DNA of 64,000 nucleotides, from NCBI GenBank assembly GCA_965223845.1, contig CBDCXR010000004.1, positions 5,984,001-6,048,000 on the forward strand, in the 5' to 3' direction. Of this stretch, positions 4,627 to 41,816 are shown in pieces. Numbering within the stretch: the stretch's first letter is position 1; the number at the start of each line of letters is the position of its first letter. Source of the DNA: Planctomycetota bacterium (lineage in GTDB: Bacteria > Planctomycetota > UBA8108 > SXIK01). The notes beneath the pieces were generated by a model, which did not search any database, had not been told where the DNA came from, and was given only the letters and a program-made list of their open reading frames with translations. The position numbers and the translations under genes were made by a program.

Positions 4627-6252
4627 TCAATCTGCTAGAAGAGGAAGCTCAAGACAAGCCGCCTCCTTGTCCGTCCGAATGAGAAGATACGGCGCCGCAA
4701 GCGCGGGAGGGTTCCACATCTTGTCGTCGAGACCGATCACGCGGATCAACTCGCGGTATTCGTCGGGATTCGGCTCGATGAGCGCGATCTCACCGGTCGT
4801 TTCCACCGTCGCGATGATCAAATCGGAAGTCGCGATGAGCTGGCCGTGCCCGATCCGTCCGGCTTTCCAGCGCCGCTCGCCCGTCGCCGGATCGAGGCAG
4901 ACCATAATCCCGTCGTCGAGACCGTAGACGTAACCGTCGAGCTCGAAGAAGTTCGAGAACTTCGCCTTGAGGCTCTTCGTCTTCCAGATCGCCTTCGACG
5001 TGAGCGAGCCGTCCGCGGCCGCCGCGATTTCGAAGAGCGCGCAGCCGATTCCATAACCGGCCGAGACGAGGACGCGATCGGAACCGATCGGCACGGGCTG
5101 CGCGACTTTCGGCCGAGAACCGGGCCAATCCTCACGCCAGAGCACGCGACCGGTATCCGGTGCGTGGGCGGCCACCGAGCGGCCGTTGAGGACGAGGATC
5201 TGCGGAACGCCCGCGACCGTGTGGAGGCTCGGCGAGCTGTAACCGTAGCTCGCGTCCCCCTCGCTCCAGCGCGGCTCCCCGCTCTCGCGATCGAACGCGA
5301 GGAGCGAGCTACCGCTGCCGGCGACCGTCACGATGCAGAGATCGTCCGTGAGAAGTGGCGAACTGCTGAGACCCCACTCGGGGACCATCGATTCCTTGTC
5401 CGGTGCGATGTCACGCGACCACACGGGTTGTCCGGATTCGAGCTCGAGACAGCTCAGCCGTCCGAGCGAACCGAGTGTGTAGACGCGGTCGCCCGAGATC
5501 GTCGGTGTCGCGCGCGGTCCGATTCCGCCGAGCACGGTCTCGTATCGACCTGCATCGGAGTGTGACCAGAGCGGGTCACCGGTCGTGAGCGCGTAGGCGG
5601 TGACGAGTTCGTTCTCGCCGCGCTGTTCCTGCGTGACCGCGATGTCTCCCGCGACGGCGAACCCGGACCAGCCGGATCCGATCTTGCGGCGCCAGACGAC
5701 GATCGGCGGCTCTTCCCTCCAGTTGCGCGCGATCTCGATCCAGCGGGCCTTCCCGTCCCGGTTGTCGCCGAGAAACTGTCGCCAATCGCTCCGCACGCGA
5801 GGCGGAGGCACCGGGGCCGACGAGGTATCCGGCGGAAGCGGGGTCGCCTCGAGTGCGCGGTCGGGCTTCTTCGCGAACCGCCATCCGATGATCGGGACCA
5901 TGTCCCCGGTCACTTGCTCGATGCGAAAGAGCGTCGCGCTTCCGCCGATGACGATGATTGCGCCGATCGCGATCCCCACGCGCGTTCGCCGCCGAAGCGG
6001 CGAGAGGAGTACGCACCAGATGAGAAACAGCGCTCCTCCCACGAGCGCGGATGCCAACGAAAGGAGCACTTTCATCTGCCGATCGGTGTCCCAGAACAGC
6101 CACGCCCAGGCGAGAAGAAGTGCGAGCGCGAAGAGGAGGGCGAGCGGGATCGCATTGACGAACGCGCGAACGAGAAGCCGGCTCGCGCTCGGCGGGCGCG
6201 GTGAGGCCGAGCCGCTCGACGCGGGCGTTCCTTGCGACGATGGATCGTTCAC
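4627..6252 (-). CDS. Membrane-anchored PQQ-binding-like (BamB-like) beta-propeller protein
   Basis: Three N-terminal TM helices, then DWRQFLGDNRDG, GWSGFAV, GPRATPTI, SSSPL, GYSSP and WNPPALA motifs typical of planctomycete PQQ_2 proteins. Confidence 0.85.
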   Translation of the reverse strand: MNDPSSQGTPASSGSASPRPPSASRLLVRAFVNAIPLALLFALALLLAWAWLFWDTDRQMKVLLSLASALVGGALFLIWCVLLSPLRRRTRVGIAIGAIIVIGGSATLFRIEQVTGDMVPIIGWRFAKKPDRALEATPLPPDTSSAPVPPPRVRSDWRQFLGDNRDGKARWIEIARNWREEPPIVVWRRKIGSGWSGFAVAGDIAVTQEQRGENELVTAYALTTGDPLWSHSDAGRYETVLGGIGPRATPTISGDRVYTLGSLGRLSCLELESGQPVWSRDIAPDKESMVPEWGLSSSPLLTDDLCIVTVAGSGSSLLAFDRESGEPRWSEGDASYGYSSPSLHTVAGVPQILVLNGRSVAAHAPDTGRVLWREDWPGSRPKVAQPVPIGSDRVLVSAGYGIGCALFEIAAAADGSLTSKAIWKTKSLKAKFSNFFELDGYVYGLDDGIMVCLDPATGERRWKAGRIGHGQLIATSDLIIATVETTGEIALIEPNPDEYRELIRVIGLDDKMWNPPALAAPYLLIRTDKEAACLELPLLAD

Positions 6253-8859: not shown

Positions 8860-9281
8860 GTGTGGCCTCCTCTGAAGTGTCGTGCGAGCGCGCCGCCCGC
8901 CGTCGCGGGTGAGTCCTCGCCGACGGCTCCAGGATCCTCGCAGCTCGTCCGATCGATCGCAAGCCGGAGGAGTCGGTGCTCGTGATCGGGAAATCCCGGA
9001 CGAAGACGCCGTGGCGGGCGGAGTGTCGAGCCGATTCCGCGAAGCACGGCGAGATCAGAAGCGCCCGAGGGGCTACGACCTCCTGATCGCCGTATCCTGC
9101 TTAGAGCGCTAGTGCGCGCCGACGGTCTTACTGCACGGAAAGGTCAGTCAGCCCGAAAACTCGCTGCGGTACCGATCCGACGGACGACCCTCTCGCCGAG
9201 TGTGTGGAGTCGCCGAACCCATGCTGAAACGGGCGGACCTTTCCGCGAACTTCGCGTCCGTCAAAAACGTCCGCACCCAAC

Positions 9282-10421
9282 TCAACAAGCCAGCCGCCGC
9301 CTGAGGTACCGCCGCGCCGGCAGCTCGAAGAGATGATACGCCATCGCCGCGAACACGATCGCCGCGAGGACGAAGCCCGCCAGAAGGAGCGACGCCGCCT
9401 CCGTCCCGAGCCCCGTTCCGAACGGCTCGTTGTAGATGCGCCGCCAACCCTGCCACGGCACCCAGTAGACGAGCCAGTGCGTCATATAGAGCGCGTAGGA
9501 GATGTCTCCGAGGTAGGTGAGCGGACGGCAATTGAACCAGCGCATGAGGCGTCCGGAGATGCTCGCTCCCGAAAGCACGAGAAGCCCGGCGAACAGCACC
9601 GAGATGGCGTCGTGCGTGTCGTAGTGAAGCGTGACGAGAAAGCCGAGGAATGCGAAGACGAAGCTCGCCGGCGATCCTGCGAGACGCCGTGCCGCCGGAG
9701 TGAGCCAGAGCTCGTAGAGAACGAGTCCGAAGAGGCACTCCGCGACGCAGCGGATTTGACCGGGGATGCCGCCGTGATCTAGTCCCTTGTCGTAGTTCGC
9801 GTAGACGAAGGAGAGCGACCAGGCGACGACGACGATCACGGCCGCGCGCACGAGCCAGCTCGTTCGGTGGACAAACGAAAAGAGCATCGGCACGACGAGA
9901 TACGTGAGCCACTCCGCTCCGATCGACCACGAAGGCTGATTCCAGTACGCCATGTCCTTCAGCGACTGAAGGAGGAAGAGGTACGGGACGAACCATTCGG
10001 CGGGATAGCGTCCGACGAATCCCTCCGTGCGGAGGAGCTGAAGCGCGAAGAACACCCACATCATCAGAAAATGAAGCGGGTAGATGCGCGCGAGTCGGGC
10101 GAGGAGGAATTTGAAGTAGCCGTAGGCGCCGACGCCGCGAGCGAATCGCTCTCGGTAGACGTGAGCGAGGACGAACCCGCTCAAAACGAAAAAGAAATCG
10201 ACCCAGAGCCAACCGCGAAAGAGGAGCTGTGTCCGCTTGTCGATCGCTTCGCCGACCTGTGGGAGCAGAAGGTATCCCAGGTGGTAGACCGTCACGTACA
10301 CCGCGGCGATCCCCCGTAGTGGGGTGAGCGTCGGGATGAACGTCACCCCCGTCGACGTCCCGGGCGGCGGCTTCACGCCGTCGGCGCTCTCCGACAGCGC
10401 TCGCGATGATCCCTCTCCCAT
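9282..10421 (-). CDS. Acyltransferase-3 (OafA-like) membrane O-acyltransferase
   Basis: LTPLRGIAAVYVTVYH, VDFFFVLSGF, ARLARIYPLH, WNQPSWSIGAEW, LGDISYALYMTH and YHLFELPAR motifs. Confidence 0.9.
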   Translation of the reverse strand: MGEGSSRALSESADGVKPPPGTSTGVTFIPTLTPLRGIAAVYVTVYHLGYLLLPQVGEAIDKRTQLLFRGWLWVDFFFVLSGFVLAHVYRERFARGVGAYGYFKFLLARLARIYPLHFLMMWVFFALQLLRTEGFVGRYPAEWFVPYLFLLQSLKDMAYWNQPSWSIGAEWLTYLVVPMLFSFVHRTSWLVRAAVIVVVAWSLSFVYANYDKGLDHGGIPGQIRCVAECLFGLVLYELWLTPAARRLAGSPASFVFAFLGFLVTLHYDTHDAISVLFAGLLVLSGASISGRLMRWFNCRPLTYLGDISYALYMTHWLVYWVPWQGWRRIYNEPFGTGLGTEAASLLLAGFVLAAIVFAAMAYHLFELPARRYLRRRLAC

Positions 10422-10619
10422 GACTCACGCTCCGGATGCCCGCGACTCCGCGGCGGACGAGACGACGACGTCGCCTCGAGCTCTCCCGCCGCTATCCCTC
10501 CACCCGCTTCGCTGTTCTCGCTTCTCTCTCCACTTCGCCCTTCGACGTGGATCTCCTCTTCGACCTCGCAGGAGAGCTCCAGCCGATATGTGACGCGTCC
10601 ACGAACTCGTCGCGCCGAG

Positions 10620-13600
10620 CTAGACCCGAGCCGCACCCGTCGAGGCCCGGGTCGCCTCCGTTTTGCAATCGGCGCAATCACATTCGCCGTTCTTCTTCGA
10701 GCAGGCCGCAGCGATCACTCGCCTGAGCTGACGCGCGAGCGTCTCGACGACCGGCTCGAGCACCGCGCCGTCGTGATCGCCCGGCCGCGCGGGCAGCTCG
10801 TGGACTTCGAGGTCGGCGATGTACTTCTTCCAGCCGTTGTCTTCATGGACGAAACGCTTCTTGCTGTCGATCCTGCGGCCGTCTCCGAGCTCGCCGGCGA
10901 TGTCGAGCGGAGGACGGAAGAGCGCGACGCGCCCGGAATACGGATCGGGCTCGTACTCGGCCATCGCGCGGAAGGTCGCATCGTAGATCGCCTCCGAACG
11001 GTAGGACGCCGGGTCGGAGCTCGGCTTCGGCTCACGCCGGAGGCGCCACTCGACCCAGCGCTTCCCGGTCTCGAAGATGTGCCGAACGCCGCGCGACTTC
11101 ACGCGGTCGCGGTGGAGCTTCAGACGGTCGCCGAGGCGAAGACGCTCCCCGGTTCGGGGGACGAGCGTGTCGAGGAACACGAGGAGCTCGACCGTCTGAC
11201 CTTCTCGCTGAAGCTGCTGCGCCATCTCGTAAGCGATGATTCCACCGGAGCAGAATCCGCCGAGGATGTACGGTCCTTCCGGCTGTACTTCGCGCACCTC
11301 GCGAAGGTAGTCAGCGGCCATCTCTTCGAACGACTCGTGAGGGTTGTCGTCGCCGAGGAGGCCGCGCGCCTGAATCCCGTAGAACGGCCGTCGCTCGCCC
11401 ACCCGGACCGCGAGCTGACGCAAATTGAGGACGTTTCCGTAGGCGCCGGCGACGACGAAGATCGGTGTGCCCGAGCCTTCACGCGGCGTCGACATCGGAA
11501 CGACGTAGCGTCGGCGCGCCGGCTCCGTGGCCTTTCCCCCGCACGCTTCGTCCGCGCTCTTGAGATCGCGTCGCAACCGCGCAGCGAGGCTCTCGATCGT
11601 CGGCGCGTCGAAGAGCGTCGCGAGCGGGTATTCGAGCCCGAACTCGGAATTGATCATCGTCATCAGCCGAACGGCGACGAGAGAGTGACCCCCGACGCTG
11701 AAGAAGTCATCGCGCACGCTGAACGCGCCGGTGCCGATGCACTCCTCCCAGAACTCGCTCAGGCGAACCTCGAGCTCGTCGCGCGGTGCGACCCACCGTG
11801 AGTCTCCGGTCGGTATCTCGGCGTTGAGGTCGTACATCGAGACGGCCATCCCGCTCGCGGCCGAGCGGCGGAAGCTGTGCTGGAGAGTGCGCAGGAGGCT
11901 AGCGGCAAGCTCGTCCGAACACTCGTCCACCGCGGGCGCCTCGATCGCGACCGATTGCGGCCGGGCTGCCGCCCACGCGTCGAGGAACGCGGCCGCCGCC
12001 GCCGAGTCGACCTGCGGTTCGAGCGCGCCGAACGGATCCTCTCGAAGCGACACGACGAAGTCGAGCTCTCCGCTCTCGAAGAGCGACTCGACGACGAGCG
12101 CGCCGTGGATTTGCGCGGTGAACACGGCCTCGACGTCGCGGTCCGTTTTTCCTAGAAGCCTTCCGGGGCGAGTGATCGCGTCGTTGTGGATCACGCCGCG
12201 CACCGCGCGGGACTCCGCGAGAAGTCGCTCGCGGAGAGAGCGCATCTCCGCGACGTCGGAGACCACGCCCGAGATCACCGACACGGTGGATCCGAGCGTC
12301 TCGATGCGCTCGATCGCGGCTTCACGCTCGTCGCTCCACTCATCGCGAGGGGCGACCGGCTCGTGTGAGAGCAAGACCGCGTGCACCGGGGCCGTGCGGG
12401 CGAGCGCTTCGGCGGCGAGGAGACCGGAGGGTGAGAGTCCGTCCGTGATCATGTACGACGCGCCCGCCACGACCGGCACGTCGTCTCGGCGTGCGAGCTC
12501 ATTCGCCGGGAGCGGAACGTAGCGACGGACCCACCGGCGACCGCCACTCAGGGCGACGCTCTCCGCCGTGGGATGGCAGAGCTCGGCGAGGAGCGCGTCG
12601 ACGATGTCTTCGCCCACTTGAGCACCCGAGAGATCGACGCTCGCGAACGCGAAGTTCTCGAGGAGGCGCGGAACGACGCGCGCGACGCCGAGAGCCGTCG
12701 CCTTCTCGGGATGGGTTCGCCGTGCGGACGCCCCTCCGACGTCCGAGTGCATGTCGCTCGAGACGATCAGGGTCTCGAGCGACCGGTCCGGCGAACGCCT
12801 CGCCATCGCCTGCGTGAGCGCGAGGAGGCTGTAAAACCCGTGTTCTTGATTCCGCTGGAAGAAACTCGAGCCCGGCCGGCAGGTCTCCTCGTCCGTCACG
12901 AGCCAGCAGTGAACGACGCGTGACGCTTCGAATCCACGGCGAGCGAGCGAGGCGAGGAGCCGATCGTACTCCTCCCGACCGAGTGAGGGATTGAGCCAGT
13001 ACTCTTCCGGCGAGAGCTCGACGAACGAATCTCCGGCGGAAACCGTCACCACACGGGCTCCTTCCGTACGGAGCGCCGCTGCGAGCTCCGCTCCGATCCC
13101 GGCTTCGTCGGCGAAGACGAGCCAGTCGCCGAGGAGCGAGATCGATCGATCGACGGCGCGTAGTTCCGACTCGACCCACTCGACGCGCTGAACCCACTCG
13201 CGCGGATCCGAACGTCGTGCGGGCGTCGTGGCCGGACGCGCCCTACTCTGCGTCGGCGCGGGCAGTCGCGCGCGGTCGATCTTCCCGTTCGGCGTGAGTG
13301 GGAGTTCCTCGAGCGCGACGAAGTGCTGCGGCACCATGTAGTACGGCAAACGACTGCGAAGAAGCTCTCGGAGCTCGTCGCGCGGCGGCTCGGCATCGTC
13401 CGCCGGAACGTAGTACGCGACGAGACGCTGGTCGCCCTCGCGATCTTCGCGGACCGAGGCCACCGCCGAATGAACTCTCGGGTGCTCGCGGAGAAGTCCT
13501 TCGATCTCGCCGAGCTCGACCCGGAAGCCGCGGATCTTCACCTGGTCGTCGGCGCGGTGGAGCCACTGAAGGAGTCCGTCGCCGTGGAAGCGTGCGATGT

Positions 13601-16325
13601 CGCCCGTTCGGTACATGCGCGCGTTCGGCTCGTTCGCGAACGGGTCCTCGACGAAGCGCGCCGCCGTGAGGTCGGGTTGGCCGTGGTATCCCCGCGCGAC
13701 ACCCGCGCCGCCGATGTAGAGCTCGCCCGGAACGCCGGCCGGAACCGGCTCTCCCGCCTCGTCGAGGATGTAGAGACGGGTGTTCGCGATCGGTCGACCG
13801 GCGACGACGAGAGCGTCACCCGAAGAGAGGCGCTGACACGTCGACCAGACGGTTGTCTCGGTCGGCCCGTAGAGGTTCCACACTTCGTCGGAATGCGCAG
13901 TGAGCTCGTGCGCGAGATCGACAGCCAAGGCCTCCCCTCCGGAGAGGACGCGAAGCGGCGTCGCGGGCCAACCGGCGTCGACGATCATGCGCCAGGTCAC
14001 CGGTGTGGCCTGAAGCGTCGTGATCTCGTGCTGCTCGATCAAGTGGAGGATGGTTCGTCCGTCCATCGCCGAAGCACTGTCGGCGACGACGGAGCGCGCA
14101 CCGACCCAGACGGGAAGGAAGAGCTCGAGCGCCGCGATATCGAACGAAATCGTCGTGAGCGCGAGGAGGCGATCCTCCGGCCCCAAGCCGGGCTCCTCGG
14201 CCATGCTGTCGAGAAAGTTCGCGAGGTTCGCGTGCGTCACCTCGACGCCCTTTGGTTTCCCGGTCGAGCCGGAGGTGTAGATGATGTAGGCGACATCGTC
14301 GCCGTCGATCCGGAGATCGCCCGGGAGGGGAGGATCGTTCGCACCCTCGCTCGGGGCTCGGTCGATGCACAGGGTCTTCGCGGCCGTCGCGGGGAGGGCG
14401 CTCTCGAGCGTCGTGCTCGTGACGACGAGCGTGGCACCCGAGCTCTCGAGGATGGCGCGCTGGCGTTCGGCCGGGTACTGCGGGTCGATCGGCACGTAGG
14501 CCGCGCCCGCCGTGAGGACTCCTAGGAGCGCGGCGGGGAGGTCGATTCCGCGCTCGAGGCAAACTGCGACGATGCCGTGCGGCGCAACTCCACTCGCTGC
14601 GATGCGGCGTGCGATGACGTCGACGCGCTCGCCGAACTCGCGGTAGGTGAACGCTCCGTCGTGCGCCTCGAAGGCGACGGCGTCCGGGGTGGCGGCGATG
14701 CGCTCGCGGATGCGGGCGGGAACGGACACCTCCGGAATCTCGCGCGCGGTTTCATTCCAGGCGACGACGACTTCGTGTCGTTCCGCGTCGGAGAGTCGCA
14801 GCGCATCGCACAGCGGTCGGTCGGGCGCTTCGACGAGCGCCTCGAGAACGTCGCGGAACTGCGCGAGGAGCCGCCGCGCGGTTACGGGACTGAAGAGATC
14901 CGTGCTGTAGTCGAGCGCGAGGGTCCAGTCGTCGACCTGCGCCTTGATGACGAAGTGGAGATCTGTCTGGGAGGACCCCATCGGCACGTTGAACTGAGTG
15001 AGCTCGACCGGCCCGAACGAGCGGGGCCGCGCCGACGCGTCCTGGTAGAGGAACATCACCTGAAAGAGCGGGTTCCGGCTCCGGTCGCGCGCGACGCTCA
15101 GCTCCTCGACGAGCTGCTCGAAGGGAAGCGACTGGTGTGTAAACGCGTCGAGCGAGTTTTCGCGGACGACTCGGACGAGCTCGCGAAAGCTCATGTCTGC
15201 GCGCAGCTCGCTCCGGGTGACGAGCATGTTGACGAAGTATCCGATGAGCGGCTCGATCTCCGGTCGGGTGGTGTTCTCGATCGGACAGCCGACCGCCAGG
15301 TCGGTCTGACCCGTCAGCCGGTGCATGAACGCCTTCACCGCGGCGAGGACGGTCATGTAGAGAGTCGCCTTCTCCGAGCGGCCGAGCTCGATCAACTTCG
15401 CGACGAGGGCATCCGGAATCGGAAGCAGCTCGGAGGTTCCGCGGTAGCTGATCGCCGCGGGACGCGGCAAGTCGGTCGGCAGCTCGAGAAACGGGACGCC
15501 GTCGCCGAGCTTCTCGCGCCAGAAATCGATATCGGCGCGCAGTGCATCGTCGCGAAGCAGGTCGCGCTCCCACGCAGCGAAGTCGGCGTACTGAACCTCG
15601 AGTGCCGGGAGCTCGGCGTCTCGATCGGCGATGTCGGCTTCGTAGAGTTGCGCGAGCTCCGCGAGCGCGATGTCGAACGACCACGCGTCCCAGACGATGT
15701 GATGCGGGAGGATGAGGATCGCGTGCTCTTCGTCGTCGAGTTGATAGAGAACGAAGCGCACGAGGCGATCGCTCGCGAGATCGAACGGTTGATGCACCTC
15801 GGCTTGGATTCGCTCGGCGAGCTCGCGCTCGCGCTCTTCCCGCGTACCCGTGCGCAAATCGTAGAGCGGTACGTCGACGTCGACCTCGTCGTGGATGACG
15901 AGCACCGGCTCACCGTTCTGCGTGAGGAAGTTCGTTCGCAGCGTCTCGTGGCGAGCGAAGATCGCAGCGATCGCGCGGCGGAGCGCCTCGACATCGAGCG
16001 GGCCGCGGAGGTGCCAGCCCCCGGGGATGTTGTGCAGCGGGCAACCCGGTTGCAGCTGCTCGAGGAACCACGCTCGTTGCTGCGAGAACGAAAGCGGAAG
16101 CGGACCGCTCCGTTCGCGGCGCGCGATCGGCGGAAGCGATTGCGATGCTTCCTCGGTCTCGGTCCGCTTGAAGAACGCGAGGAACTCGTCGCGACGCTCA
16201 CGAATCCTCGCGATGAGCTGCGGGTCCGCGGAGCCCCGTGGCGCATTGCAGATCAGTCGACCGGATTCGACGCGGAGCTCGATCCCGGCCTCTCTGAGCT
16301 CAGAGAGAAACTCGTAGATTCTCAA
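10620..16325 (-). CDS. NRPS: TubC-type N-terminal docking - C - A (Gly-like code) - degenerate KR - T - thioesterase (Cys nucleophile)
   Basis: Docking MRIYEFLSELREAGIELRVESGRL; C HHIVWDAWS; A YTSGSTGKPKG, NLYGPTE, YRTGD, PNGKIDR; KR-like region with ITDGLSPSG; T FFSVGGHSL; TE GGFCSGG...GDH. Confidence 0.9.
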   Translation of the reverse strand: MRIYEFLSELREAGIELRVESGRLICNAPRGSADPQLIARIRERRDEFLAFFKRTETEEASQSLPPIARRERSGPLPLSFSQQRAWFLEQLQPGCPLHNIPGGWHLRGPLDVEALRRAIAAIFARHETLRTNFLTQNGEPVLVIHDEVDVDVPLYDLRTGTREERERELAERIQAEVHQPFDLASDRLVRFVLYQLDDEEHAILILPHHIVWDAWSFDIALAELAQLYEADIADRDAELPALEVQYADFAAWERDLLRDDALRADIDFWREKLGDGVPFLELPTDLPRPAAISYRGTSELLPIPDALVAKLIELGRSEKATLYMTVLAAVKAFMHRLTGQTDLAVGCPIENTTRPEIEPLIGYFVNMLVTRSELRADMSFRELVRVVRENSLDAFTHQSLPFEQLVEELSVARDRSRNPLFQVMFLYQDASARPRSFGPVELTQFNVPMGSSQTDLHFVIKAQVDDWTLALDYSTDLFSPVTARRLLAQFRDVLEALVEAPDRPLCDALRLSDAERHEVVVAWNETAREIPEVSVPARIRERIAATPDAVAFEAHDGAFTYREFGERVDVIARRIAASGVAPHGIVAVCLERGIDLPAALLGVLTAGAAYVPIDPQYPAERQRAILESSGATLVVTSTTLESALPATAAKTLCIDRAPSEGANDPPLPGDLRIDGDDVAYIIYTSGSTGKPKGVEVTHANLANFLDSMAEEPGLGPEDRLLALTTISFDIAALELFLPVWVGARSVVADSASAMDGRTILHLIEQHEITTLQATPVTWRMIVDAGWPATPLRVLSGGEALAVDLAHELTAHSDEVWNLYGPTETTVWSTCQRLSSGDALVVAGRPIANTRLYILDEAGEPVPAGVPGELYIGGAGVARGYHGQPDLTAARFVEDPFANEPNARMYRTGDIARFHGDGLLQWLHRADDQVKIRGFRVELGEIEGLLREHPRVHSAVASVREDREGDQRLVAYYVPADDAEPPRDELRELLRSRLPYYMVPQHFVALEELPLTPNGKIDRARLPAPTQSRARPATTPARRSDPREWVQRVEWVESELRAVDRSISLLGDWLVFADEAGIGAELAAALRTEGARVVTVSAGDSFVELSPEEYWLNPSLGREEYDRLLASLARRGFEASRVVHCWLVTDEETCRPGSSFFQRNQEHGFYSLLALTQAMARRSPDRSLETLIVSSDMHSDVGGASARRTHPEKATALGVARVVPRLLENFAFASVDLSGAQVGEDIVDALLAELCHPTAESVALSGGRRWVRRYVPLPANELARRDDVPVVAGASYMITDGLSPSGLLAAEALARTAPVHAVLLSHEPVAPRDEWSDEREAAIERIETLGSTVSVISGVVSDVAEMRSLRERLLAESRAVRGVIHNDAITRPGRLLGKTDRDVEAVFTAQIHGALVVESLFESGELDFVVSLREDPFGALEPQVDSAAAAAFLDAWAAARPQSVAIEAPAVDECSDELAASLLRTLQHSFRRSAASGMAVSMYDLNAEIPTGDSRWVAPRDELEVRLSEFWEECIGTGAFSVRDDFFSVGGHSLVAVRLMTMINSEFGLEYPLATLFDAPTIESLAARLRRDLKSADEACGGKATEPARRRYVVPMSTPREGSGTPIFVVAGAYGNVLNLRQLAVRVGERRPFYGIQARGLLGDDNPHESFEEMAADYLREVREVQPEGPYILGGFCSGGIIAYEMAQQLQREGQTVELLVFLDTLVPRTGERLRLGDRLKLHRDRVKSRGVRHIFETGKRWVEWRLRREPKPSSDPASYRSEAIYDATFRAMAEYEPDPYSGRVALFRPPLDIAGELGDGRRIDSKKRFVHEDNGWKKYIADLEVHELPARPGDHDGAVLEPVVETLARQLRRVIAAACSKKNGECDCADCKTEATRASTGAARV

Positions 16326-19300
16326 ATCTCGATGTCCTCACGCCCGTCGTCCGCGGTTCCACCCGCGGACGCGCCCACGTACCGCTGCGCCTCGATGTAT
16401 TCGGCCAGCCCACGAATCGTCGGATCGACGAAAAACCCTCGCAGTTGCAGATCGACGTGAAACTCTTCGCGCGCCTTGGCGAGCATTCGCGCCGCGACGA
16501 GTGAGTGTCCGCCGAGGTCGAAGAAGTCCGCCCGCACGCTCACGCGCTCGAGGCGCAGTGTTTCGCTCCAGAGCTGCGCGAGATACGACTCGACCTCGCC
16601 CGCCGCCGGCGCGTACGTCTCGACGATGATCGAGGCGCCGTCCGGCGGCGGCAGCGCGCGGCGGTCGACCTTCCCGTTCGGCGTGCGCGGCACTTCGTCG
16701 AGCTCGACAAAGTGCTGCGGCACCATGTACTCGGGGAGACGCGCGCGAACGAAGGCTCGCAATTCTCCGAGATCGAGCGAATCGTGCTCCCAGCGAACGT
16801 AGGCGACCAGGCGGTGGTCGCCGGACTCGCCCTCCCACACCGAGGCGACCGCCTCGGCGACGCCTCCGAACGCGGCGAGCGCGCTCTCGACTTCACCGAG
16901 CTCGATGCGGAAGCCTCGGACCTTGACCTGGTCGTCGACGCGGCGGAGGCACTCGATCGCTCCGCTCGACGTGACGCGCGCGAGGTCGCCGGTCCGGTAG
17001 AGTCGATCTCCGTCGCGGAAGGGATGCTCGACGAACTTCTCCGAGGTGAGCTCGTCGCGACCGAGGTAACCGCGTGCGAGGCCGGTGCCGCCGATGTAGA
17101 GCTCGCCGACCGCGCCGACGGGAAGGAGCTCCCTCGCATCGTCGAGGACGAAGAGCTCGGTGTTCGCGATCGGTCGACCGACGAGAACTCGGTCGTCGGA
17201 AGGATGGACGCGATGACAGGAAGACCAGACCGTGGTCTCCGTCGGCCCATACATATTCCACACCTCCTCCGAACGCTCGCCAAACTGCCGCGCGAGGTCC
17301 TCGGGGAGACGTTCACCGCCGCAGAGAACCTTGAGGGGGACTTCTCGTGTCCACCCCGCTTCGATGAGAAGTCGCCAGGTGACTGGCGTCGCTTGGAGGA
17401 CCGTCGCGCCCGTCGTGCGAATGAGCCGCAGCAGCTCGGCGCCGTCGGCGGCCGTTTCGCTCGGCACTAGAATACACTTCGCTCCAACGAAGAGCGGAAG
17501 GAAAAGCTCGAGCGCGGCGATGTCGAACGAGATCGTCGTGACCGCCGCGAGTCCATCGATCGGACGAAGTCCGGGCTCGCGCGCCATGCTGGCGAGGAAG
17601 TTGACGAGGCTCCGGTGCGTGATCTGAACGCCCTTCGGCTTTCCCGTCGAACCGGACGTATAAATGACGTACGCAAGATGTTCGGGGCCGGTCGTCGGTT
17701 CGAGGTCCGAGGCGTCCGCGTCTCCGATCACGTTCGCTTCGAGATCGAGACAGACGACGCGCGCACTGCCCTTCGGCAGATCCGCCGCGATGCTCGAATG
17801 CGAGAGCACGACGCTCGCCCGCGAATCTTCGAGCATGAACTCGATGCGTGCGGCGGGAAAATCCGGGTCGAGGGGAACGTAAGCCCCGCCGGCCTTGTGA
17901 ATCGCGAGGAGCGCGATGACGAGATCCGGTCCGCGCTCGAGGTGAACGCCGATCAGATCTTCCGCACCGACTCCGATCGAGCGCAGGTAGCGCGCGAGTC
18001 GGTTCGCCTCGGCGTTCAGCTCGCGGTACGTCCAGCTCGACTCTCCGAAGACGACAGCGGTCGCGTTCGGCGTCTTCGTCGCCTGCTCGGCGATCACGCG
18101 CTGGAGGCAGCCGTCGGGGAATTCGGCGGTCGTCCGATTGAGCTCCGTCTCGAGGTGGTCCCGCTGATCGGCGGTGAGGACGGGAAGGCGCCGCACTTCG
18201 GTCTCGGGCGTGCGCACCGCGCTTTCGAGCAAGCACTCGAAGTGGCTGAGCCAGCGGCGGATCGTCGCTTCGTCGTAGAGATCGGTATTGAAATCGAGGT
18301 CGACGGTGAGGCTTCCCTGACCCTCGTTCAGGTTGACGAACATGTCGAAGTGCGCCGCGCCCTTCGGGTTCTCATGAATCGACGCGCTGAGTCCACTGAA
18401 CCCGCTTCCCGGCACGTCGCGGTCGACGTTGAAGATCACCTCGATGAGCGGCAGTCGACTCGGATCGCGTTTGACGGCGATCTCTTCGAGCAGGCGACCG
18501 AACGCGACGTCCTGGTTCTCGTACATGTCGAGCACCTTCGACTGCACTTCGTCGAGGAGGGTCGCAAACGTCGCCCCGCGGGGGAACTTCATGCGAACCG
18601 GCACCAGATTGACGCAGTGCCCGATCATGTTCTGCTCGCCGGCGAGCGCTTGGCCGGCCGTCGGGATGCCGACGACGAGATCGTCCTGGCCGGTGAGCCG
18701 GTGGAGAAGCGCACCGTACGTGGCGAGGAGTGCCGCGAAGAGTGTCACGCCGCGCTCTCCGGCGAAGGCCTTGAACGACTCGTACACGTCTTGATCGAAC
18801 TGATGGTGGATCGATGAACCGCCGTTTGTGCGCACACGAGGCCGGATTCGATCGGTCGGGAGGTCGAGGGGCGGTGGAACGCTCGCGAACTCGTTTTTCC
18901 AGAAGCGAATGATCTCGTCGCCCGCCTCGCTCGCGCGCCGTTCCTCTTCCTCGATCGCATAGCGGAGAAACGAGCCTGCGTCGGGAAGGAGCGCCGGACG
19001 ATTCTCGACCGAGCTCGAGTAGAGGACGCTCACCTCGTCCACGAACACGCCTGCTGACCAGCCGTCGAAGACGATATGGTGGGACGTGCCGATGAGGTGG
19101 TGCGTCGTCGCGTCGAGCTTGACGACGTGGAGCCGGAGGAGCGGCCCCGCCTCGAGATCGAACGGCGTTCGCCCCTCGTGGTCGTAGATCCGGCGGAGCT
19201 CTTCTTTCTTCTTCGAGCGTGAACAGCCGGAGAGATCGGTCCACTCCCACTCGGGTGTCTCGGAAAGAACGAGCCGCTGGGACGGACCATCGCTGCTGAA

Positions 19301-22300
19301 GCGCAGCGAAAACCCTTCGTGCCGCTCGACCGTCTGCCGGATCGCGTCGCGAAGGGCGTCGACGTCGAGCTTGCCCCGCAGCTTGAGCGTAAACGACTCG
19401 TTGTACGCGCAGGAGGCGTCGTCCCCCATTTGCGATGCGAACCAGATCTCGCGCTGCCCGTCCGTGAGAGGAAACGATCCGACGGGAACGTCGACGACGA
19501 GCTCGCTCTCCGGAAGAAATCCACCGGCTTGCATCTCGAGCACGCTCTCCTCGATCGCCGCTTGCACGCGCGCAATCTCCTCGCTCGTGTGCTGCGTCGA
19601 GAAGAAGCAGTTCTGCCCGATCTCGCGGATGTAGATCCCGCGCTCGATCAGGTGGTAGACGAGGATCGGGCCGATCGGGAGGTCGCTCGGAAGGTCGAAG
19701 CGGAACCACGAGCTGAACTGACGGATGCGAATTGGTACGCGTCGCGACTCGAAGAAGAGATTGAGCTCGCGCGCGAAGCGTGTCGTGCGCGCATTCACGC
19801 CCTCCTGGAGCTTCGGACCTTCGGTTTCGAGGTGCTCGAGCACCGCGCCCGCGGCCGCGAGGGCGAGCGGATGGCGGACGAACGTCCCGGCGAAGAACGT
19901 CATGTCGGCCTCCGGCGCGGAGTCGTCGCCGTAGTTCCACATGCCGCCGTCGAGCGCATCCATGTATTTCGCGCTCCCGGCGACGACTCCGATCGGGAGC
20001 CCGCCGCCGATCACCTTCCCGTAGGTTGCGAGGTCGCCGCGGATGCCGAAGAGAGCCTGCGCGCCGCCGGGGTGCACGCGGAATCCGGTGATGACCTCGT
20101 CGAAGATCATCGCCGTTCCACTCTCTTCGGTGAGCTGACGCACCGCGCGGAGGAACTCAACCGGACGGTTCTCCGGGTGGCGACTCTGAATCGGCTCCAC
20201 CAGCACCGCCGCCAGCTCGCCCGCGTGCGCTCGGAGCACCTCGAGACTTTCCGGCGCCCCGTAGTCGAGGATCATCGCCGCGTTCACCGCTTGCTGCACG
20301 ATTCCCGGTGCCGCGGGCAGGGTCTGAAGGTTCCCACGCACCACCTGTGAGCGACCGAGCACTTCGTCGAAGACGCCGTGGTAGTCACCGGCGAAGTACG
20401 CGATGCGATCGCGTCCCGTCACCGTTCGCGCCATGCGAAGAGCCGCGGTGACGGCTTCCGAGCCGGTATTGCAGAACGACACTCGCTCCATCCCGGTGAG
20501 CCGCGCGAGGCGCTCGGCGACCGGCCCGGCGAGCTCGTGCTGCGGTCCGATCTCCATCCCTCGCTCGAGCTGTGCGCGAATCGCCGCCTCGACGTAATCG
20601 GGCGAGTGCCCGAGGTAGTTGACGCCGAATCCCATGGTGATGTCGATGTACTCGTTGCCATCGACGTCCCAGAGGCGCGAACCCTTCGAGCGCTCGGTGA
20701 CGATCTGGTAGACGAGCTCCTTCCACGCGCCGCGGAAGCCCGCGACCGATCGCGGATCGGACTGAACGGGCCGATAGCGCGCGGCGGCGGCTTTCGATCC
20801 GGCGGTCTTTTCGCTGACGCGATGGACGAGCGCGTCGAGATGCTGCTGTTGGCGCGAAGTGAGTCCGCCGTCGGCACCGCGCGCGACCGGCGCGTAGGGG
20901 CCGAAGCGTCCCTTCGTCGACTCGGTGTCGCCTCGCGCGCCGAGCTTCGCCTGCGCGACGGGGCGCCGGAGATCCTCGGGCTCGAGATCGCCCGTCGAGC
21001 GAGCGCTTTGCGCGCGCAGACCGGCAAGTTCCGACTGGATCGTCTGGAGCTGTGCCGCGATGCGATCGACGGGATCGCCCCCCTCGCTCGGCGCGATCGG
21101 GGGAGCGGCGGCCGGAGGCGCGCTCGACGCCGCCGGTGCGGGCGTCGTGGCAACCGGGGCCGGCGCCGCGAACGCGTCTGCGGGGAGGCGTTCGTCGTAG
21201 TATTCGGCGAGCGCTTCGATCGACGTCACGTCTTCGAGAAGCTGGCGGAACTTGATTCGCTCGCCGAGCTGCTGACCGAGCTCGGCGCTCGCCTGCGTGA
21301 GGAAGAGCGAATCGAGTCCCATTTCGAGGAACGTCGTCTCGCGATCGTCCTCGCCGATCTCGATGCCGGAGAGGTCGTAGAAGATCTCGCGGATGCGACT
21401 CGCGATCCGGTCCTTTCGGCTGCCGGGATCCTCCGCTTCGGTCGGAGCGGCGGCGGGAGGGACCGCGGCGTCCGCGGTGAGCTCAGAGCTCGAAACCGCG
21501 GTGACGCCCGAGGGGGTAGCGCGCGTCGGGTCCCCGAGCGGGGGCGGGTCGATCCAGTGCCGTTCGCGGGCGAACGCGTAGCCGGGAAGCTCGACGCGGC
21601 GGCGCCCTTCTTCGGCGTAGAACTTCTCCCAATCGACTGCGACGCCGTTCGTCCACAAGCGACCGACCGCGTCGAGGATCGATGCGAGTGCGTCGCCGGC
21701 ATCCTTCGGATGCGCACACGACGAAACGACGCTCGGACGTCTGCCGTCGAACGAGTGCTGGAGCGCGGAGTTGGACAGCGTGCGCGAAGGTCCGACCTCG
21801 AGAAACACGCGACCCTCCTCGCGTGCGACCTCGGACAGCGCGGCGCTGAAGCGCACCGGACGGCGGAGTTGCTGTGCCCAGTAGCTCGGATCGGTCGCCT
21901 CGGAGTCGGTGAGCCACCTTCCGGTGAGCGTCGAGAGAATGGGGCGCGAGGGCGCACGCCGCTCGACGCCGGCGACGATGGCGGTGAACGGCGCGACGAC
22001 CGGCTCCATCATCTCCGAGTGGAACGCGTGCGACGTGTGGAGCGGGATCGTCTCGAGCTTGTCGGCGCTCAAGCGTTTCTCGAACGCCTGAATCGCCTCC
22101 GGCGAGCCGCTCACGATCGAGACCTGCGGCGCGTTCGCGGCGGCGAGCGCAACGCCGTCACCGAGATAAGGCGCAACATCCTCTTCGCTGAGCCGAACGG
22201 CGCGCATGTGACCCGCGGGCATCGACTGCATGAGGCGCGCGCGCTCGGCGAGAACGCGGAGGGCGTCGTCGAACGTGAACACTCCGGCGAGGCACGCCGC

Positions 22301-24226
22301 GGTGTACTCGCCGACACTGTGACCGATCATCACCTCCGGCGTGAATCCCCAGCTTTCCCACAGCTCTGCGAGTGCGTATTCGATGACGAAGAGGGCCGGC
22401 TGCGTGACGCTCGTCTGCGTGAGAGTCTTCGCGGCGCTCTTTCGCTCGTCTTCGCTTCCCGTCGGGTAGAGCACGCTCCGGAGATCGAGATCGAGGATCG
22501 GCCGGAGTCCCTCACAGCCGCGATCGACTGCGTCGCGGAAGACGCGCTCCGACTCGTAGAGCGCGCGACACATATCCACGTGCTGCGCGCCTTGTCCCGG
22601 GAAGAGGTAGACGAGCGAACGATCGCCGTCGGGCGCGGTCTGCTTGACGCGGCGACTCTTCTCCCGCAGCGCCGCGTGCGCGTCGGCGGCGTCCGCCGCG
22701 ACTACGAATAGACGCTCGGAGAATTCTTCGCGGCCGACGGCGAGCGTGTACGCCGCGTCGGGAAGTTCGGGGGCGCCGTCGCGACCGAACGCCTCGGCGA
22801 GCTCTGCGGCACTTCGTTCGAGCGCCTCCGTCGTTTTCGCCGAGAGCGGAACGAGCTCGAGCCGCCGGGCCGAGAGCGCCGGACGCGGTGCCGGCGCTTC
22901 CTCGAGTACGACGTGGACATTGGTTCCCCCGACGCCGAACGAGCTCACTCCCGCGCGGCGAGGAACTCCCTCGGGCGGAGTCCAAGCGCGGTGCTTCTCG
23001 ACCGGATAGAACGGGCTCGACGCGAAGTCGATCTCGGGGTTCGGCGCGGTGTAGTGGAGCGTTGCGGGGATCTCTCCGTGCTGGAGTGCGAGCACGGTCT
23101 TGATGAGGCCCGCGACGCCGGCGGCCGCATCGAGGTGGCCGATGTTGCTCTTCACCGAGCCGAGCCCGCAGTACTGCTCTCGATCCGTTTTCGCACGGAA
23201 CGCCTTCGTGAGGCCCGCGACTTCGATGGGATCGCCGAGCGGAGTCGCCGTACCGTGGCCTTCGACGTAGGTGATCGTCTCGGGGTCGACGCCCGCGACG
23301 CTCTGCGCGAGGGCGATCACCTCCGCCTGACCATCGACCGACGGGGCCGGGTAGCTCACCTTGAGCGCGCCGTCGTTGTTCGTGCCCCAGCCGCGGATCA
23401 CCGCGAGGATGCGATCGCCGCTCGCGATCGCGTCTTCTAGCCGGCGGAGGACGACGACTCCGACGCCGCTCGAAAAGACGGTCCCGCACGCGTTCTCATC
23501 GAAGGGGCGACAGTGCCCGTCGGGCGAGAGCATGCCGCCTTCCTGAGAGATGTATCCCTTCTCCTGCGGAAAGGAGATGCAAACGCCTCCGGCGAGGCAG
23601 AGATCGCACTCGAAGTTGACGAGGCTGCTGCAGCCCATCGCGACCGCGACGAGCGACGTCGAGCACGCGGTCTGGACGTTGACCGACGGACCCTTCAGGT
23701 TGAACTTGAAGCTCGTCCGTGTCGGCAGGTAGTCCTTGTCGTTGCTGATGATGTTTTGGAACGCGTCGACCGACCGAAACCGCACCAGTCGTTCGATGTA
23801 CTCGCGATCCCGGCACAGGTTGTAGAGGAGGTACGAGTTGATGTAGCTCCCGGCGTACACGCCGATCGAGCCCCGGAACTTGCTCGGCGCGTGACCGGCG
23901 TTCTCGAGCGCGTGCCACGCGGTCTCGAGCCACACGCGCTGCTGGGGGTCGAGCACCGCGGCTTCCCGCGGGCTGAAGCCGAAGAATCCGGCGTCGAACT
24001 TGTCGACGTCCGCGAGGATCCCGCGCGCCCGTACGTAGCTCGGATCGTTCTGGATGCGTTCGAAGTCGAGCTCCACACCGCGGAGCTGGTCGTCGGAGAG
24101 ACGGTGGAGGCTCTCCCTGCCGGCAGCGAGGTTCTGCCAGAACTCGGCGATATTCCGAGCGTCTGGGAACCGCCCCGCCATGCCGACGATGGCGACCCCT
24201 TCGAGGTCTTGCGCGCCTGTCTGCAT
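16322..24226 (-). CDS. Hybrid PKS-NRPS: KS - AT (malonyl) - ACP - class III aminotransferase - C - A (Gly-like code) - T
   Basis: KS VQTACSTS/EGHGTAT/GHLDAAAG; AT GHSVGE and HAFHS; ACP MGLDSL; AMT CNTGSEA, FDEVITGFR, TYGKVIGGG; C HHIVFDGWS; A core motifs; T FFDLGGHSL. 4-bp overlap with the downstream NRPS. Confidence 0.95.
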   Translation of the reverse strand: MQTGAQDLEGVAIVGMAGRFPDARNIAEFWQNLAAGRESLHRLSDDQLRGVELDFERIQNDPSYVRARGILADVDKFDAGFFGFSPREAAVLDPQQRVWLETAWHALENAGHAPSKFRGSIGVYAGSYINSYLLYNLCRDREYIERLVRFRSVDAFQNIISNDKDYLPTRTSFKFNLKGPSVNVQTACSTSLVAVAMGCSSLVNFECDLCLAGGVCISFPQEKGYISQEGGMLSPDGHCRPFDENACGTVFSSGVGVVVLRRLEDAIASGDRILAVIRGWGTNNDGALKVSYPAPSVDGQAEVIALAQSVAGVDPETITYVEGHGTATPLGDPIEVAGLTKAFRAKTDREQYCGLGSVKSNIGHLDAAAGVAGLIKTVLALQHGEIPATLHYTAPNPEIDFASSPFYPVEKHRAWTPPEGVPRRAGVSSFGVGGTNVHVVLEEAPAPRPALSARRLELVPLSAKTTEALERSAAELAEAFGRDGAPELPDAAYTLAVGREEFSERLFVVAADAADAHAALREKSRRVKQTAPDGDRSLVYLFPGQGAQHVDMCRALYESERVFRDAVDRGCEGLRPILDLDLRSVLYPTGSEDERKSAAKTLTQTSVTQPALFVIEYALAELWESWGFTPEVMIGHSVGEYTAACLAGVFTFDDALRVLAERARLMQSMPAGHMRAVRLSEEDVAPYLGDGVALAAANAPQVSIVSGSPEAIQAFEKRLSADKLETIPLHTSHAFHSEMMEPVVAPFTAIVAGVERRAPSRPILSTLTGRWLTDSEATDPSYWAQQLRRPVRFSAALSEVAREEGRVFLEVGPSRTLSNSALQHSFDGRRPSVVSSCAHPKDAGDALASILDAVGRLWTNGVAVDWEKFYAEEGRRRVELPGYAFARERHWIDPPPLGDPTRATPSGVTAVSSSELTADAAVPPAAAPTEAEDPGSRKDRIASRIREIFYDLSGIEIGEDDRETTFLEMGLDSLFLTQASAELGQQLGERIKFRQLLEDVTSIEALAEYYDERLPADAFAAPAPVATTPAPAASSAPPAAAPPIAPSEGGDPVDRIAAQLQTIQSELAGLRAQSARSTGDLEPEDLRRPVAQAKLGARGDTESTKGRFGPYAPVARGADGGLTSRQQQHLDALVHRVSEKTAGSKAAAARYRPVQSDPRSVAGFRGAWKELVYQIVTERSKGSRLWDVDGNEYIDITMGFGVNYLGHSPDYVEAAIRAQLERGMEIGPQHELAGPVAERLARLTGMERVSFCNTGSEAVTAALRMARTVTGRDRIAYFAGDYHGVFDEVLGRSQVVRGNLQTLPAAPGIVQQAVNAAMILDYGAPESLEVLRAHAGELAAVLVEPIQSRHPENRPVEFLRAVRQLTEESGTAMIFDEVITGFRVHPGGAQALFGIRGDLATYGKVIGGGLPIGVVAGSAKYMDALDGGMWNYGDDSAPEADMTFFAGTFVRHPLALAAAGAVLEHLETEGPKLQEGVNARTTRFARELNLFFESRRVPIRIRQFSSWFRFDLPSDLPIGPILVYHLIERGIYIREIGQNCFFSTQHTSEEIARVQAAIEESVLEMQAGGFLPESELVVDVPVGSFPLTDGQREIWFASQMGDDASCAYNESFTLKLRGKLDVDALRDAIRQTVERHEGFSLRFSSDGPSQRLVLSETPEWEWTDLSGCSRSKKKEELRRIYDHEGRTPFDLEAGPLLRLHVVKLDATTHHLIGTSHHIVFDGWSAGVFVDEVSVLYSSSVENRPALLPDAGSFLRYAIEEEERRASEAGDEIIRFWKNEFASVPPPLDLPTDRIRPRVRTNGGSSIHHQFDQDVYESFKAFAGERGVTLFAALLATYGALLHRLTGQDDLVVGIPTAGQALAGEQNMIGHCVNLVPVRMKFPRGATFATLLDEVQSKVLDMYENQDVAFGRLLEEIAVKRDPSRLPLIEVIFNVDRDVPGSGFSGLSASIHENPKGAAHFDMFVNLNEGQGSLTVDLDFNTDLYDEATIRRWLSHFECLLESAVRTPETEVRRLPVLTADQRDHLETELNRTTAEFPDGCLQRVIAEQATKTPNATAVVFGESSWTYRELNAEANRLARYLRSIGVGAEDLIGVHLERGPDLVIALLAIHKAGGAYVPLDPDFPAARIEFMLEDSRASVVLSHSSIAADLPKGSARVVCLDLEANVIGDADASDLEPTTGPEHLAYVIYTSGSTGKPKGVQITHRSLVNFLASMAREPGLRPIDGLAAVTTISFDIAALELFLPLFVGAKCILVPSETAADGAELLRLIRTTGATVLQATPVTWRLLIEAGWTREVPLKVLCGGERLPEDLARQFGERSEEVWNMYGPTETTVWSSCHRVHPSDDRVLVGRPIANTELFVLDDARELLPVGAVGELYIGGTGLARGYLGRDELTSEKFVEHPFRDGDRLYRTGDLARVTSSGAIECLRRVDDQVKVRGFRIELGEVESALAAFGGVAEAVASVWEGESGDHRLVAYVRWEHDSLDLGELRAFVRARLPEYMVPQHFVELDEVPRTPNGKVDRRALPPPDGASIIVETYAPAAGEVESYLAQLWSETLRLERVSVRADFFDLGGHSLVAARMLAKAREEFHVDLQLRGFFVDPTIRGLAEYIEAQRYVGASAGGTADDGREDIEI

Positions 24227-41154: not shown

Positions 41155-41354
41155 CTCCACCCAGACGCGGTTCGTTGGCTGAGCGGCGCGGGATCCGCGG
41201 CCAGCTCTCGCGAATTCACCGCCCGCTTGTGACGCGGCGCGGCGGAGCGGAGAAGACCCATTCAGCGAACGTGAGCCCGGCGTGCGGGCGAACTGGAGAG
41301 CCGGGGCGCGAACGTTCCCTCCGGCGTCGGTCGATCGTTTTTTGAGGTGTCCAG

Positions 41355-41720: not shown

Positions 41721-41816
41721 AGCGCGGCCCATTCCGCGTGAGTGAACGTTCGGGGGAAACGACCGGCCGAGGCGTTTCCCTCGAGCGTTGTTTCTGAAGT
41801 TGCGAGCGCCGTCGCC

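Follow-up and report, generated by a model that had tools for sequence, protein, structure and literature searches.

In the depsipeptide modules of nonribosomal peptide synthetases (NRPSs), such as StsA/CesA (structure 6ULW), CrpD-M2 and NatD, a two-lobed ketoreductase (KR) domain lies directly between the adenylation (A) domain and the carrier (T) domain, giving the order A-KR-T or, together with condensation (C) and thioesterase (TE) domains, C-A-KR-T-TE; the latter is the terminal form of NatD as given in the relevant part of PMC11355689. According to section 2.5 of PMC11253843, the A domains of depsipeptide modules lack Asp235 and the A5 Pro and load 2-oxo acids, and their KR is active. 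We analyzed a 64,000-nucleotide stretch of a Planctomycetota genome (assembly GCA_965223845.1, contig CBDCXR010000004.1, positions 5,984,001 to 6,048,000; hereafter the window), in which one open frame encodes a 1901-residue protein with the Pfam domain order dock-C-A(Gly)-KR*-T-TE(Cys), where dock is an N-terminal docking domain and KR* denotes a KR that is predicted to be dead. This terminal NRPS module shares the placement of the KR with the depsipeptide modules but differs from them in its glycine-type A domain, in its dead KR and in the nearest relatives of that KR, which are KRs of polyketide synthases (PKSs). Conservation of the A(Gly)-KR*-T-TE(Cys) layout extends to at least seven further uncultured bacteria that are distantly related. 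We consider it probable that KR* is a PKS-derived, redox-dead spacer or scaffold in a terminal glycine module, from which a beta-aminoacyl-Gly-Gly chain would be released by the Cys-TE.

Another described system is Dol15D-M2 of the dolastatin 15 line (C-Ax-KAL-KR-T). In the passages of PMC13643306 that deal with this module, an A domain with an acidic residue 235 is likewise followed by a KR before the carrier, and one vestigial domain is proposed to be kept for structure. There, however, the A domain is the dead one, with a degenerate A3 motif, its KR is active, and the two are separated by a keto-acid AMP-ligase. The window module is thus its mirror image as far as those passages go: its A domain looks active and has an intact A3, and its A10 is followed after only 18 residues by a dead KR. 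Redox-inactive PKS KRs (KR0 and C-type) also have a KR fold without reduction, but they sit after ketosynthase and acyltransferase domains (KS-AT) in PKS modules, whereas KR* follows an amino-acid A domain within an NRPS module. The epimerizing C2-type KR keeps the catalytic Tyr and Ser, whereas KR* has lost all four catalytic residues. Silent domains are common in assembly lines, and in the open-access full-text literature we found no description of a dead PKS-type KR conserved between an amino-acid A domain and its carrier. What is new here is a conserved termination module of glycine A domain, dead KR, carrier and Cys-TE; silent PKS KRs and depsipeptide A-KR-T modules were already known.

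A domain and KR of the terminal module

The A domain was complete (AMP-binding at residues 540-881, AMP-binding_C at 940-1015). When read by eye against the consensus of A-domain core motifs, A3, A5, A7, A8 and A10 were all intact (YIIYTSGSTGKPKG, NLYGPTE, YRTGD, QVKIRGFRVELGEIE, LPYYMVP and PNGKIDR). The amino-binding Asp235 was kept in SFDIA and the A5 Pro in NLYGPTE, and the extracted pocket columns read DILQLGLVW; the nearest A domains (50-54% identity), which belong to ordinary C-A-T NRPSs, read DILQLG[LMV][IV]W. In keto-acid A domains the amino-binding Asp is replaced by a hydrophobic residue and the A5 Pro by Met, as in StsA (Ile306 and Met415; PMC11253843, section 2.5). Judged by these residues, the window A domain is an amino-acid domain of glycine type and not a keto-acid domain, in agreement with the sequence-only reading of this DNA, which had noted the retained Asp. 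A PDB match to LgrA module 2 (Gly) at 622 bits was dropped as evidence for glycine, since this score was the sum of two A domains (297.9 + 323.7).

The A10 motif (PNGKIDRARLPAP; residues 1012-1024, window 13254-13292) was followed by only ~18 residues before the KR. Pfam analysis of the whole 1901-residue protein gave no PP-binding match between A and KR and returned the order A, KR, PP-binding, which puts the KR immediately behind a complete A domain and ahead of the carrier and bears out the earlier claim that no carrier intervenes. In the TE the nucleophile motif was GGFCSGG, with Cys1692 (window 11250-11252) as the nucleophile and the His retained within PGDHDG. The stretch from KR* to T was ~55 residues long and had low model confidence (model residues 455-484, pLDDT <50), and the other seven family members described below had ~30 more residues between KR* and T. 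In StsA, according to section 2.2.5 of PMC10510592, 30 N-terminal residues and a stretch of ~70 residues that follows the KR make up a split pseudo-Asub.

Both lobes of the KR were recognized by Pfam. The N-terminal, structural lobe (PF21394, residues 1070-1191, 46 bits against a cut-off of 26.9) contained the stretches REWVQRVEW, WLVFADEAGIG, RVVHCW and RPGSSFFQRNQEHGFYSLL, and the catalytic lobe matched PF08659 (residues 1289-1457, 64.9 bits against a cut-off of 22.6). For the catalytic columns, 266 relatives from two database searches yielded 418 KR-like segments, and the 387 segments that covered both motifs were aligned. TDGLSPSG of the window aligned with TGGLGGIG of the relatives, whose usual loop is (L/V)ITGGLGGIG. 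The catalytic Lys, Tyr and Asn columns held Gln1405, Ser1441 and Ala1445, respectively, and the catalytic Ser-Ser stretch was Arg-Glu. Tyr was present in 375 of the 387 segments, and its loss is therefore not the norm of the family; the other 12 comprised two gaps in truncated proteins, four His and six otherwise degenerate segments, the window being among these six.

The sequence-only reading had called this KR dead for reduction, with TGGLGGIG changed to TDGLSPSG and YxAAN to DSAAAA. The change in the cofactor loop and the loss of the Lys, Ser, Tyr and Asn residues were confirmed by the alignment, and on recomputation the coordinates given for both motifs were correct within a few bases. The loss of YxAAN also stood, but the Tyr had been paired with the Asp of VDSAAAAAF (which begins at residue 1439, window ~11991-12008), whereas the alignment places the neighboring Ser1441 in the Tyr column.

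Structure prediction indicated that both lobes keep their fold. An AlphaFold model of residues 1030-1530, based on a 19-row alignment, contained two Rossmann-like lobes (mean pLDDT 80.6, pTM 0.82). The best Foldseek match of the KR* model was 6ULW (TMq 0.76), followed by MlnE, Lsd14 and DEBS KR1 at TM ~0.7; the TM range to 6ULW, 5D2E, 7S6B and 2FR0 was 0.66-0.76, and the C2-type KR 3QP9 was also among the fold matches. A look-up of the KR region in the ESM Atlas returned generic KR clusters only. As judged from the alignment and the model, KR* is redox-dead: it keeps the fold but has lost the cofactor loop together with the four catalytic residues.

A family of eight and the origin of its KR-T-TE block

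The window protein belongs to a family of eight A-KR*-T-TE proteins. L042, from a Planctomycetota metagenome-assembled genome (MAG), matched from A10 through the TE (E 3e-132), alone among 80 kept genome loci, and L089, L092, L093 and L096 are metagenome contigs, the only four of 52 loci to match from residue 1; Pfam annotation was run on L042 and on three of these four contigs. The remaining two members are P0121, with the layout (KS)-AT-ACP-C-A-KR*-T-TE (ACP, acyl carrier protein), and P0251, a fragment whose C-terminal part is A-KR*-T-TE. None of the eight had Tyr in the catalytic column (S, A, D, P, E, E, Q and D were found) or Asn four residues past it, and the glycine loop was degenerate in all, while the catalytic Lys was kept in three (P0121, L093 and L089). 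All eight carriers had GGHS, and all eight TEs had H-D-G together with the motif GGFC[SIV]GG, whose nucleophile is Cys; across the 161 TE matches examined, the nucleophile was Ser in 140 and Cys in 15, and six were gapped. The full nine-residue A pocket was readable in four members and read DILQLG..W in each. In L089, L093 and L096 only the FDIAGLE stretch with the first three pocket positions was seen, and the L092 contig did not include the A core. The TE domains of the eight were 44-49% identical.

At 90% clustering the window protein was a singleton. A search of the 21 genomes of its order yielded no orthologue in the 20 others, the best non-self match being a 2168-residue frame with 34% identity. 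A search of a large protein collection with the junction (residues 930-1310) gave no A-KR proteins and was swamped by the score sums of multi-module NRPSs. A profile search with six family tails placed the L042 and window proteins at the top and gave no further full-length members among the best 120 matches; P0121 was itself absent from these 120, so this search was not exhaustive.

The best matches of residues 1030-1530 were PKSs of ~2100-2200 residues with the order KS-AT-KR-DH-ACP-TE (DH, dehydratase), at 200-270 bits and 30-40% identity. These ~2140-residue PKSs (many Planctomycetota and Rhodobacterales records, among them P0006, P0012 and L002) have a KR, carrier and TE homologous to those of the window; unlike the window module, they are headed by KS-AT, their KR is intact and is separated from the ACP by a DH, and the nucleophile of their TE is Ser. 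L002 is a paralogue in the same genome (a 2172-residue frame; 37% identity and 193.7 bits to the window KR region), whereas the score of the window KR against the solved depsipeptide module 6ULW was 77.6 bits. Compared with P0006, the window was 46% identical in the structural lobe, 34% in the catalytic lobe, 48% in T and 46% in the TE.

IQ-TREE phylogenies were consistent with these scores. In an 81-row KR tree, seven of the eight dead KRs fell inside a clade of KRs from the ~2140-residue PKSs, with a Shimodaira-Hasegawa-like approximate likelihood-ratio test (SH-aLRT) support of 99; the remaining one, P0168b, is part of a modular PKS that is unrelated. In a 64-row KR tree that contained all eight family members, these lay on one side of a branch (SH-aLRT 92). 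The KR trees took in no depsipeptide KR, and the separation from depsipeptide KRs rests on the scores. The firmer result came from a 53-row TE tree, where the eight formed one clade (99) nested in the PKS-TE clade (100), beside three Ser-type PKS TEs (93). These comparisons of sequence support an origin of the KR-T-TE block in the PKS lineage with KS-AT-KR-DH-ACP-TE; as the sequence-only reading had expected, the block matched PKSs with intact KRs.

That reading had further derived the module from an NRPS-PKS by loss of T-KS-AT. The PKS origin stood, but a deletion could not be distinguished from recombination, and both are equally possible. P0436 (dock-C-A(Gly)-T-KS-AT-KR-ACP-TE, with an intact KR) has the layout proposed for the ancestor; its dock-C-A part is 42% identical to that of the window over 1021 residues and has glycine-type A motifs, but its TE belongs to another group (GGHSFGS) and scored 75.8 bits, against 220-237 bits for the family members and P0006. 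From its sequence, P0436 is better regarded as an analogue than as a demonstrated relative of the window KR-T-TE block. The suggestion that the module is a snapshot of a recent event was not supported, given that the layout is old, occurring in eight proteins with TEs 44-49% identical in one TE clade, and that the dead KR still evolves under purifying selection by the rough ratios given below. Nor was it evident that the module is on the road to a depsipeptide A-KR-T module: the A domain has the hallmarks of an amino-acid domain, and the KR scored 190-270 bits against PKS KRs versus 77.6 bits against 6ULW.

Other rearrangements were seen among PKSs of this kind. P0003, P0005 and P0031 (2657-2797 residues) have the order KS-AT-KR-DH-ACP-KR*-TE, with a dead second KR between ACP and TE and no second carrier after it; an example of the second-KR loop in this group is VTDGLAGVG, with Glu in the Tyr column. 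In the 64-row tree the dead KRs of P0003/P0005 and of P0031 fell apart from the window family and thus appear to be independent inactivations. P0499 and P0454 (~3070 residues) are again of this PKS type and have an NRPS module inserted ahead of the TE, giving KS-AT-KR-DH-ACP-C-A-T-TE. P0110 (1946 residues), a KS-AT-KR-DH PKS of the ~2140-residue family, carries an AMP-binding_C fragment (residues 1749-1818) between DH and ACP, a further sign of A-domain/PKS mosaics in this family.

To evaluate constraint on KR*, mean pairwise identities were compared by domain. In the family the structural and catalytic lobes averaged 33.5% and 21.2%, and T and TE 45.4% and 46.2%; in 16 active PKSs the corresponding values were 45.9%, 50.1%, 60.4% and 52.3%, indicating that the catalytic lobe has been freed from most of its constraint. 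Pairwise identity in this lobe was 18-28% across the eight members, with almost no invariant column and no conserved candidate active site. Nei-Gojobori dN/dS ratios, which are rough since dS is near saturation (~1), were 0.31-0.34 for the catalytic lobe, 0.23-0.31 for the structural lobe, 0.13-0.40 for T and 0.19-0.26 for the TE in the three closest pairs (L089, L092 and L093). No stop was found in any of the six tail frames translated from DNA. On these rough sequence measures the catalytic lobe appears relaxed yet under purifying selection, as expected of a folding, place-filling and non-catalytic domain.

Possible roles of KR*

In the reading that we favor, the window encodes a two-protein hybrid line, KS-AT-ACP-aminotransferase-C-A(Gly)-T followed by dock-C-A(Gly)-KR*-T-TE. 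The KS-AT-ACP-aminotransferase part would make a beta-amino acyl chain, to which two glycines would then be added. KR* would have arrived together with the following carrier and TE from a type I PKS of the KS-AT-KR-DH-ACP-TE lineage. Since a glycyl or peptidyl-glycyl thioester lacks a ketone, KR* would be left without a substrate for reduction. It would have lost cofactor binding and the catalytic residues, while purifying selection would preserve it as a folded scaffold or spacer keeping A, T and TE in working geometry. The Cys-TE would release beta-aminoacyl-Gly-Gly by hydrolysis or by formation of a lactam with the beta-amine. Aminotransferase-containing modules are known from iturin-type and microcystin-type lines, and by analogy we infer the chain to be one beta-amino acyl unit plus two glycines. 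The sequence-only reading had viewed the KR as a structural relic or else as repurposed; the structural part of this is probably right, and a repurposed KR, though possible, would have to act with no conserved set of residues in its catalytic lobe.

Such a repurposed, non-redox KR*, with a part in substrate binding or gating or in assisting the Cys-TE during cyclization or oligomerization, seems to us rather unlikely. It would account for the retention of KR* at full length in all eight members, always with the change of the TE nucleophile from Ser to Cys, and for the catalytic-lobe dN/dS of ~0.3; dead KRs also directly precede the same kind of TE in P0003, P0005 and P0031. The near absence of invariant residues in the catalytic lobe, at 18-28% identity and with no candidate active site, argues against it, and the position of the P0003/P0005 and P0031 KRs elsewhere in the tree makes that association convergent, not inherited. 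Domains of the short-chain dehydrogenase/reductase fold without redox activity can serve as Dieckmann cyclases in fungal PKS-NRPSs, and in the single-protein relatives (KS-AT-ACP-C-A-KR*-T-TE) an N-(3-oxoacyl)glycyl chain might be released in Dieckmann fashion with the help of a repurposed KR*. A Dieckmann or tetramate role was rejected for the window KR*, since the aminotransferase domain of this pathway is predicted to convert the 3-oxo group to an amine. KR* may instead have been recruited as a non-redox adaptor that couples the PKS-derived T-TE to the NRPS C-A pair and acts with the Cys-TE in an unusual release, for example small-ring lactam formation or oligomerization of beta-aminoacyl-Gly-Gly. 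We regard this adaptor as doubtful; if it were real, Gly-A/KR*/T/TE(Cys) would be a conserved and previously unrecognized termination cassette.

A depsipeptide-type keto-acid module as in cereulide, valinomycin, cryptophycin (CrpD-M2) or neoantimycin (NatD) synthesis, or a recently inactivated one, would load glyoxylate or another 2-oxo acid and yield a hydroxy acid. This explanation is largely refuted and very improbable. Although the C-A-KR-T-TE order is that of NatD in the relevant part of PMC11355689, and 6ULW is the best solved-structure match by sequence and by fold, the A domain keeps the Asp235 and A5 Pro that are Ile306 and Met415 in StsA (PMC11253843, section 2.5), the KR is without its cofactor loop and four catalytic residues, and it scores 77.6 bits against 6ULW versus 190-270 bits against the ~2140-residue PKSs, among whose KRs it nests. 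It is hardly conceivable that the junction is misassembled or that the module is a pseudogene being lost, although a protein alone in its 90% cluster and without an orthologue in the 20 other genomes of the order might suggest so. In Logan contigs, a 9073-base contig in each of two runs from one sample covered 12700-13543 without differences, and a 157-base contig from a different study covered 13170-13314, also without differences; the two-run contigs are possibly the source data of the genome assembly, which leaves the second study as the independent one. These assembled contigs bridge the junction with no differences and refute the misassembly that the sequence-only reading had allowed for. 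Contigs of three runs ended or piled up at 13514-13545, which is the A8 motif QVKIRGFRVEL and lies away from the A/KR junction; summed depth there was up to 93 versus ~6 on either side. The 32-mer is not repeated in the window, and the spike probably reflects k-mers common to other NRPS genes of the samples. Stronger support for a real junction than the contigs is its presence in seven independent sequences. A pseudogene is further contradicted by the open frame of 1901 codons with intact A, T and TE motifs, in which no frameshift is seen and both the T serine and the triad of the TE are retained. No RNA run was listed among the matching sequencing runs.

Several observations weigh against a redox-dead scaffold of PKS origin that delivers beta-aminoacyl-Gly-Gly. 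Both "dead" and "structural" are read from the sequence and a predicted model, and the L042 loop, SGALSGVG, still fits GxxxGxG, so cofactor binding is possible in some members. Long retention of a 450-residue domain could equally mean some non-redox activity, and the saturation of dS blurs the ratios given above. The assignment of glycine presumes that the DILQLG..W pocket code denotes this amino acid. The trees came from short searches with SH-aLRT as their only support, and the dead KRs sit on long branches (1.1-2.1). Raw scores put the window KR* nearer to active PKS KRs than to the other dead ones (190 bits against the paralogue in its own genome versus 114 bits against the L042 KR*), a pattern that might have pointed to independent origins had there been no TE tree. 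The partner gene has a KS-AT with no special closeness to the ~2140-residue PKS family (mean 809 vs 777 bits), so that only the KR-T-TE block has that ancestry; the idea that an NRPS cassette had been inserted into one PKS module was not supported for the same reason. No starter-loading enzyme, loading module or acyl ligase was found near the two window genes, which makes the product a guess.

Gene neighborhood and implications

The coordinates of the two synthetase genes and of the parts of the terminal module are collected in Table 1. The stop of the partner gene overlaps the start of the terminal module (TTGA), and the partner synthetase begins directly with its KS at residue 9. L042 carries the same partner gene (50% identity over 1342 residues to the window partner), and upstream of it the L042 genome encodes an A-methyltransferase-T protein and a KS-AT protein.

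Table 1. Positions, strand and basis of assignment of the synthetase features in the window
Feature	Window positions	Strand	Basis
Terminal NRPS module gene	10620..16325	-	ORF list, translation, Pfam
TubC_N-type N-terminal docking domain, residues 3-53	16167..16319	-	Pfam PF18563, 45.4 bits
Condensation domain, residues 76-518, motif HHIVWDAW	14772..16100	-	Pfam PF00668, 314.8 bits; motif from translation
Adenylation domain, residues 540-1024	13254..14708	-	Pfam; motifs from translation; pocket columns extracted
Linker from A10 to first KR strand, 18 residues, without carrier domain	13200..13253	-	Translation, Pfam, alignment
Structural (pseudo-KR) lobe, residues ~1043-1270	12516..13199	-	Pfam PF21394, AlphaFold model, alignment to PKS KRs
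Catalytic-lobe remnant of KR, residues ~1285-1462	11940..12473	-	Pfam PF08659, alignments, model, Foldseek
Degenerate NADPH loop MITDGLSPSG, residues 1292-1301	12423..12452	-	Alignment; active relatives LITGGLGGIG
Former YxxxN motif: Ser1441 (Tyr column), Ala1445 (Asn column)	11991..12005	-	Alignments
Gln1405 in catalytic Lys column	12111-12113	-	Alignments
Carrier (T) domain, residues ~1517-1595, GGHS with Ser1548	11541..11777	-	Pfam PF00550 (PP-binding 1533-1584), alignment
Thioesterase, residues ~1615-1880	10686..11483	-	Pfam PF00975 (match 1621-1728), alignment, TE tree
Partner gene, 2634 residues: KS-AT-ACP-class III aminotransferase-C-A(Gly)-T	16322..24226	-	Pfam; pocket DILQLGMVW

The gene that immediately follows the terminal module encodes a membrane acyltransferase (Acyl_transf_3; 9282-10421, minus strand). 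Further on is a gene for a PQQ-type beta-propeller protein (4627-6252, minus strand), and an AsmA-like protein and an ABC transporter are also encoded near the synthetases. The gene downstream of the window NRPS (9148-10428) is unrelated to that downstream in L042 (12832-14343); a beta-propeller similar to the PQQ-type one is found near the L042 cluster (19143-20405). Outside the synthetase cluster, 34230-40661 (minus strand) encodes a 2143-residue protein with NHL repeats, a subtilase, a Vgb-lyase-like beta-propeller, TIG and PKD. Three long frames, of 1029 (45976-49065, minus strand), 676 (30787-32817, plus strand) and 515 residues (41262-42809, minus strand), had no Pfam match at E 1e-5, and some of them may not be genes, the DNA being G+C-rich.

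For genome mining the module calls for caution: a C-A-KR-T-TE protein would be called a hydroxy acid (depsipeptide) unit, whereas the sequence of this one points to plain glycine. A small two-gene pathway, predicted to join a beta-amino acid to two glycines with Cys-TE release, is marked out by these proteins in a Planctomycetota MAG and in metagenome contigs. More generally, the family shows that a PKS KR-ACP-TE block can be grafted behind an NRPS C-A pair and be functional in the long term, and the boundary between A10 and the pseudo-KR provides a natural precedent for a PKS/NRPS fusion point.

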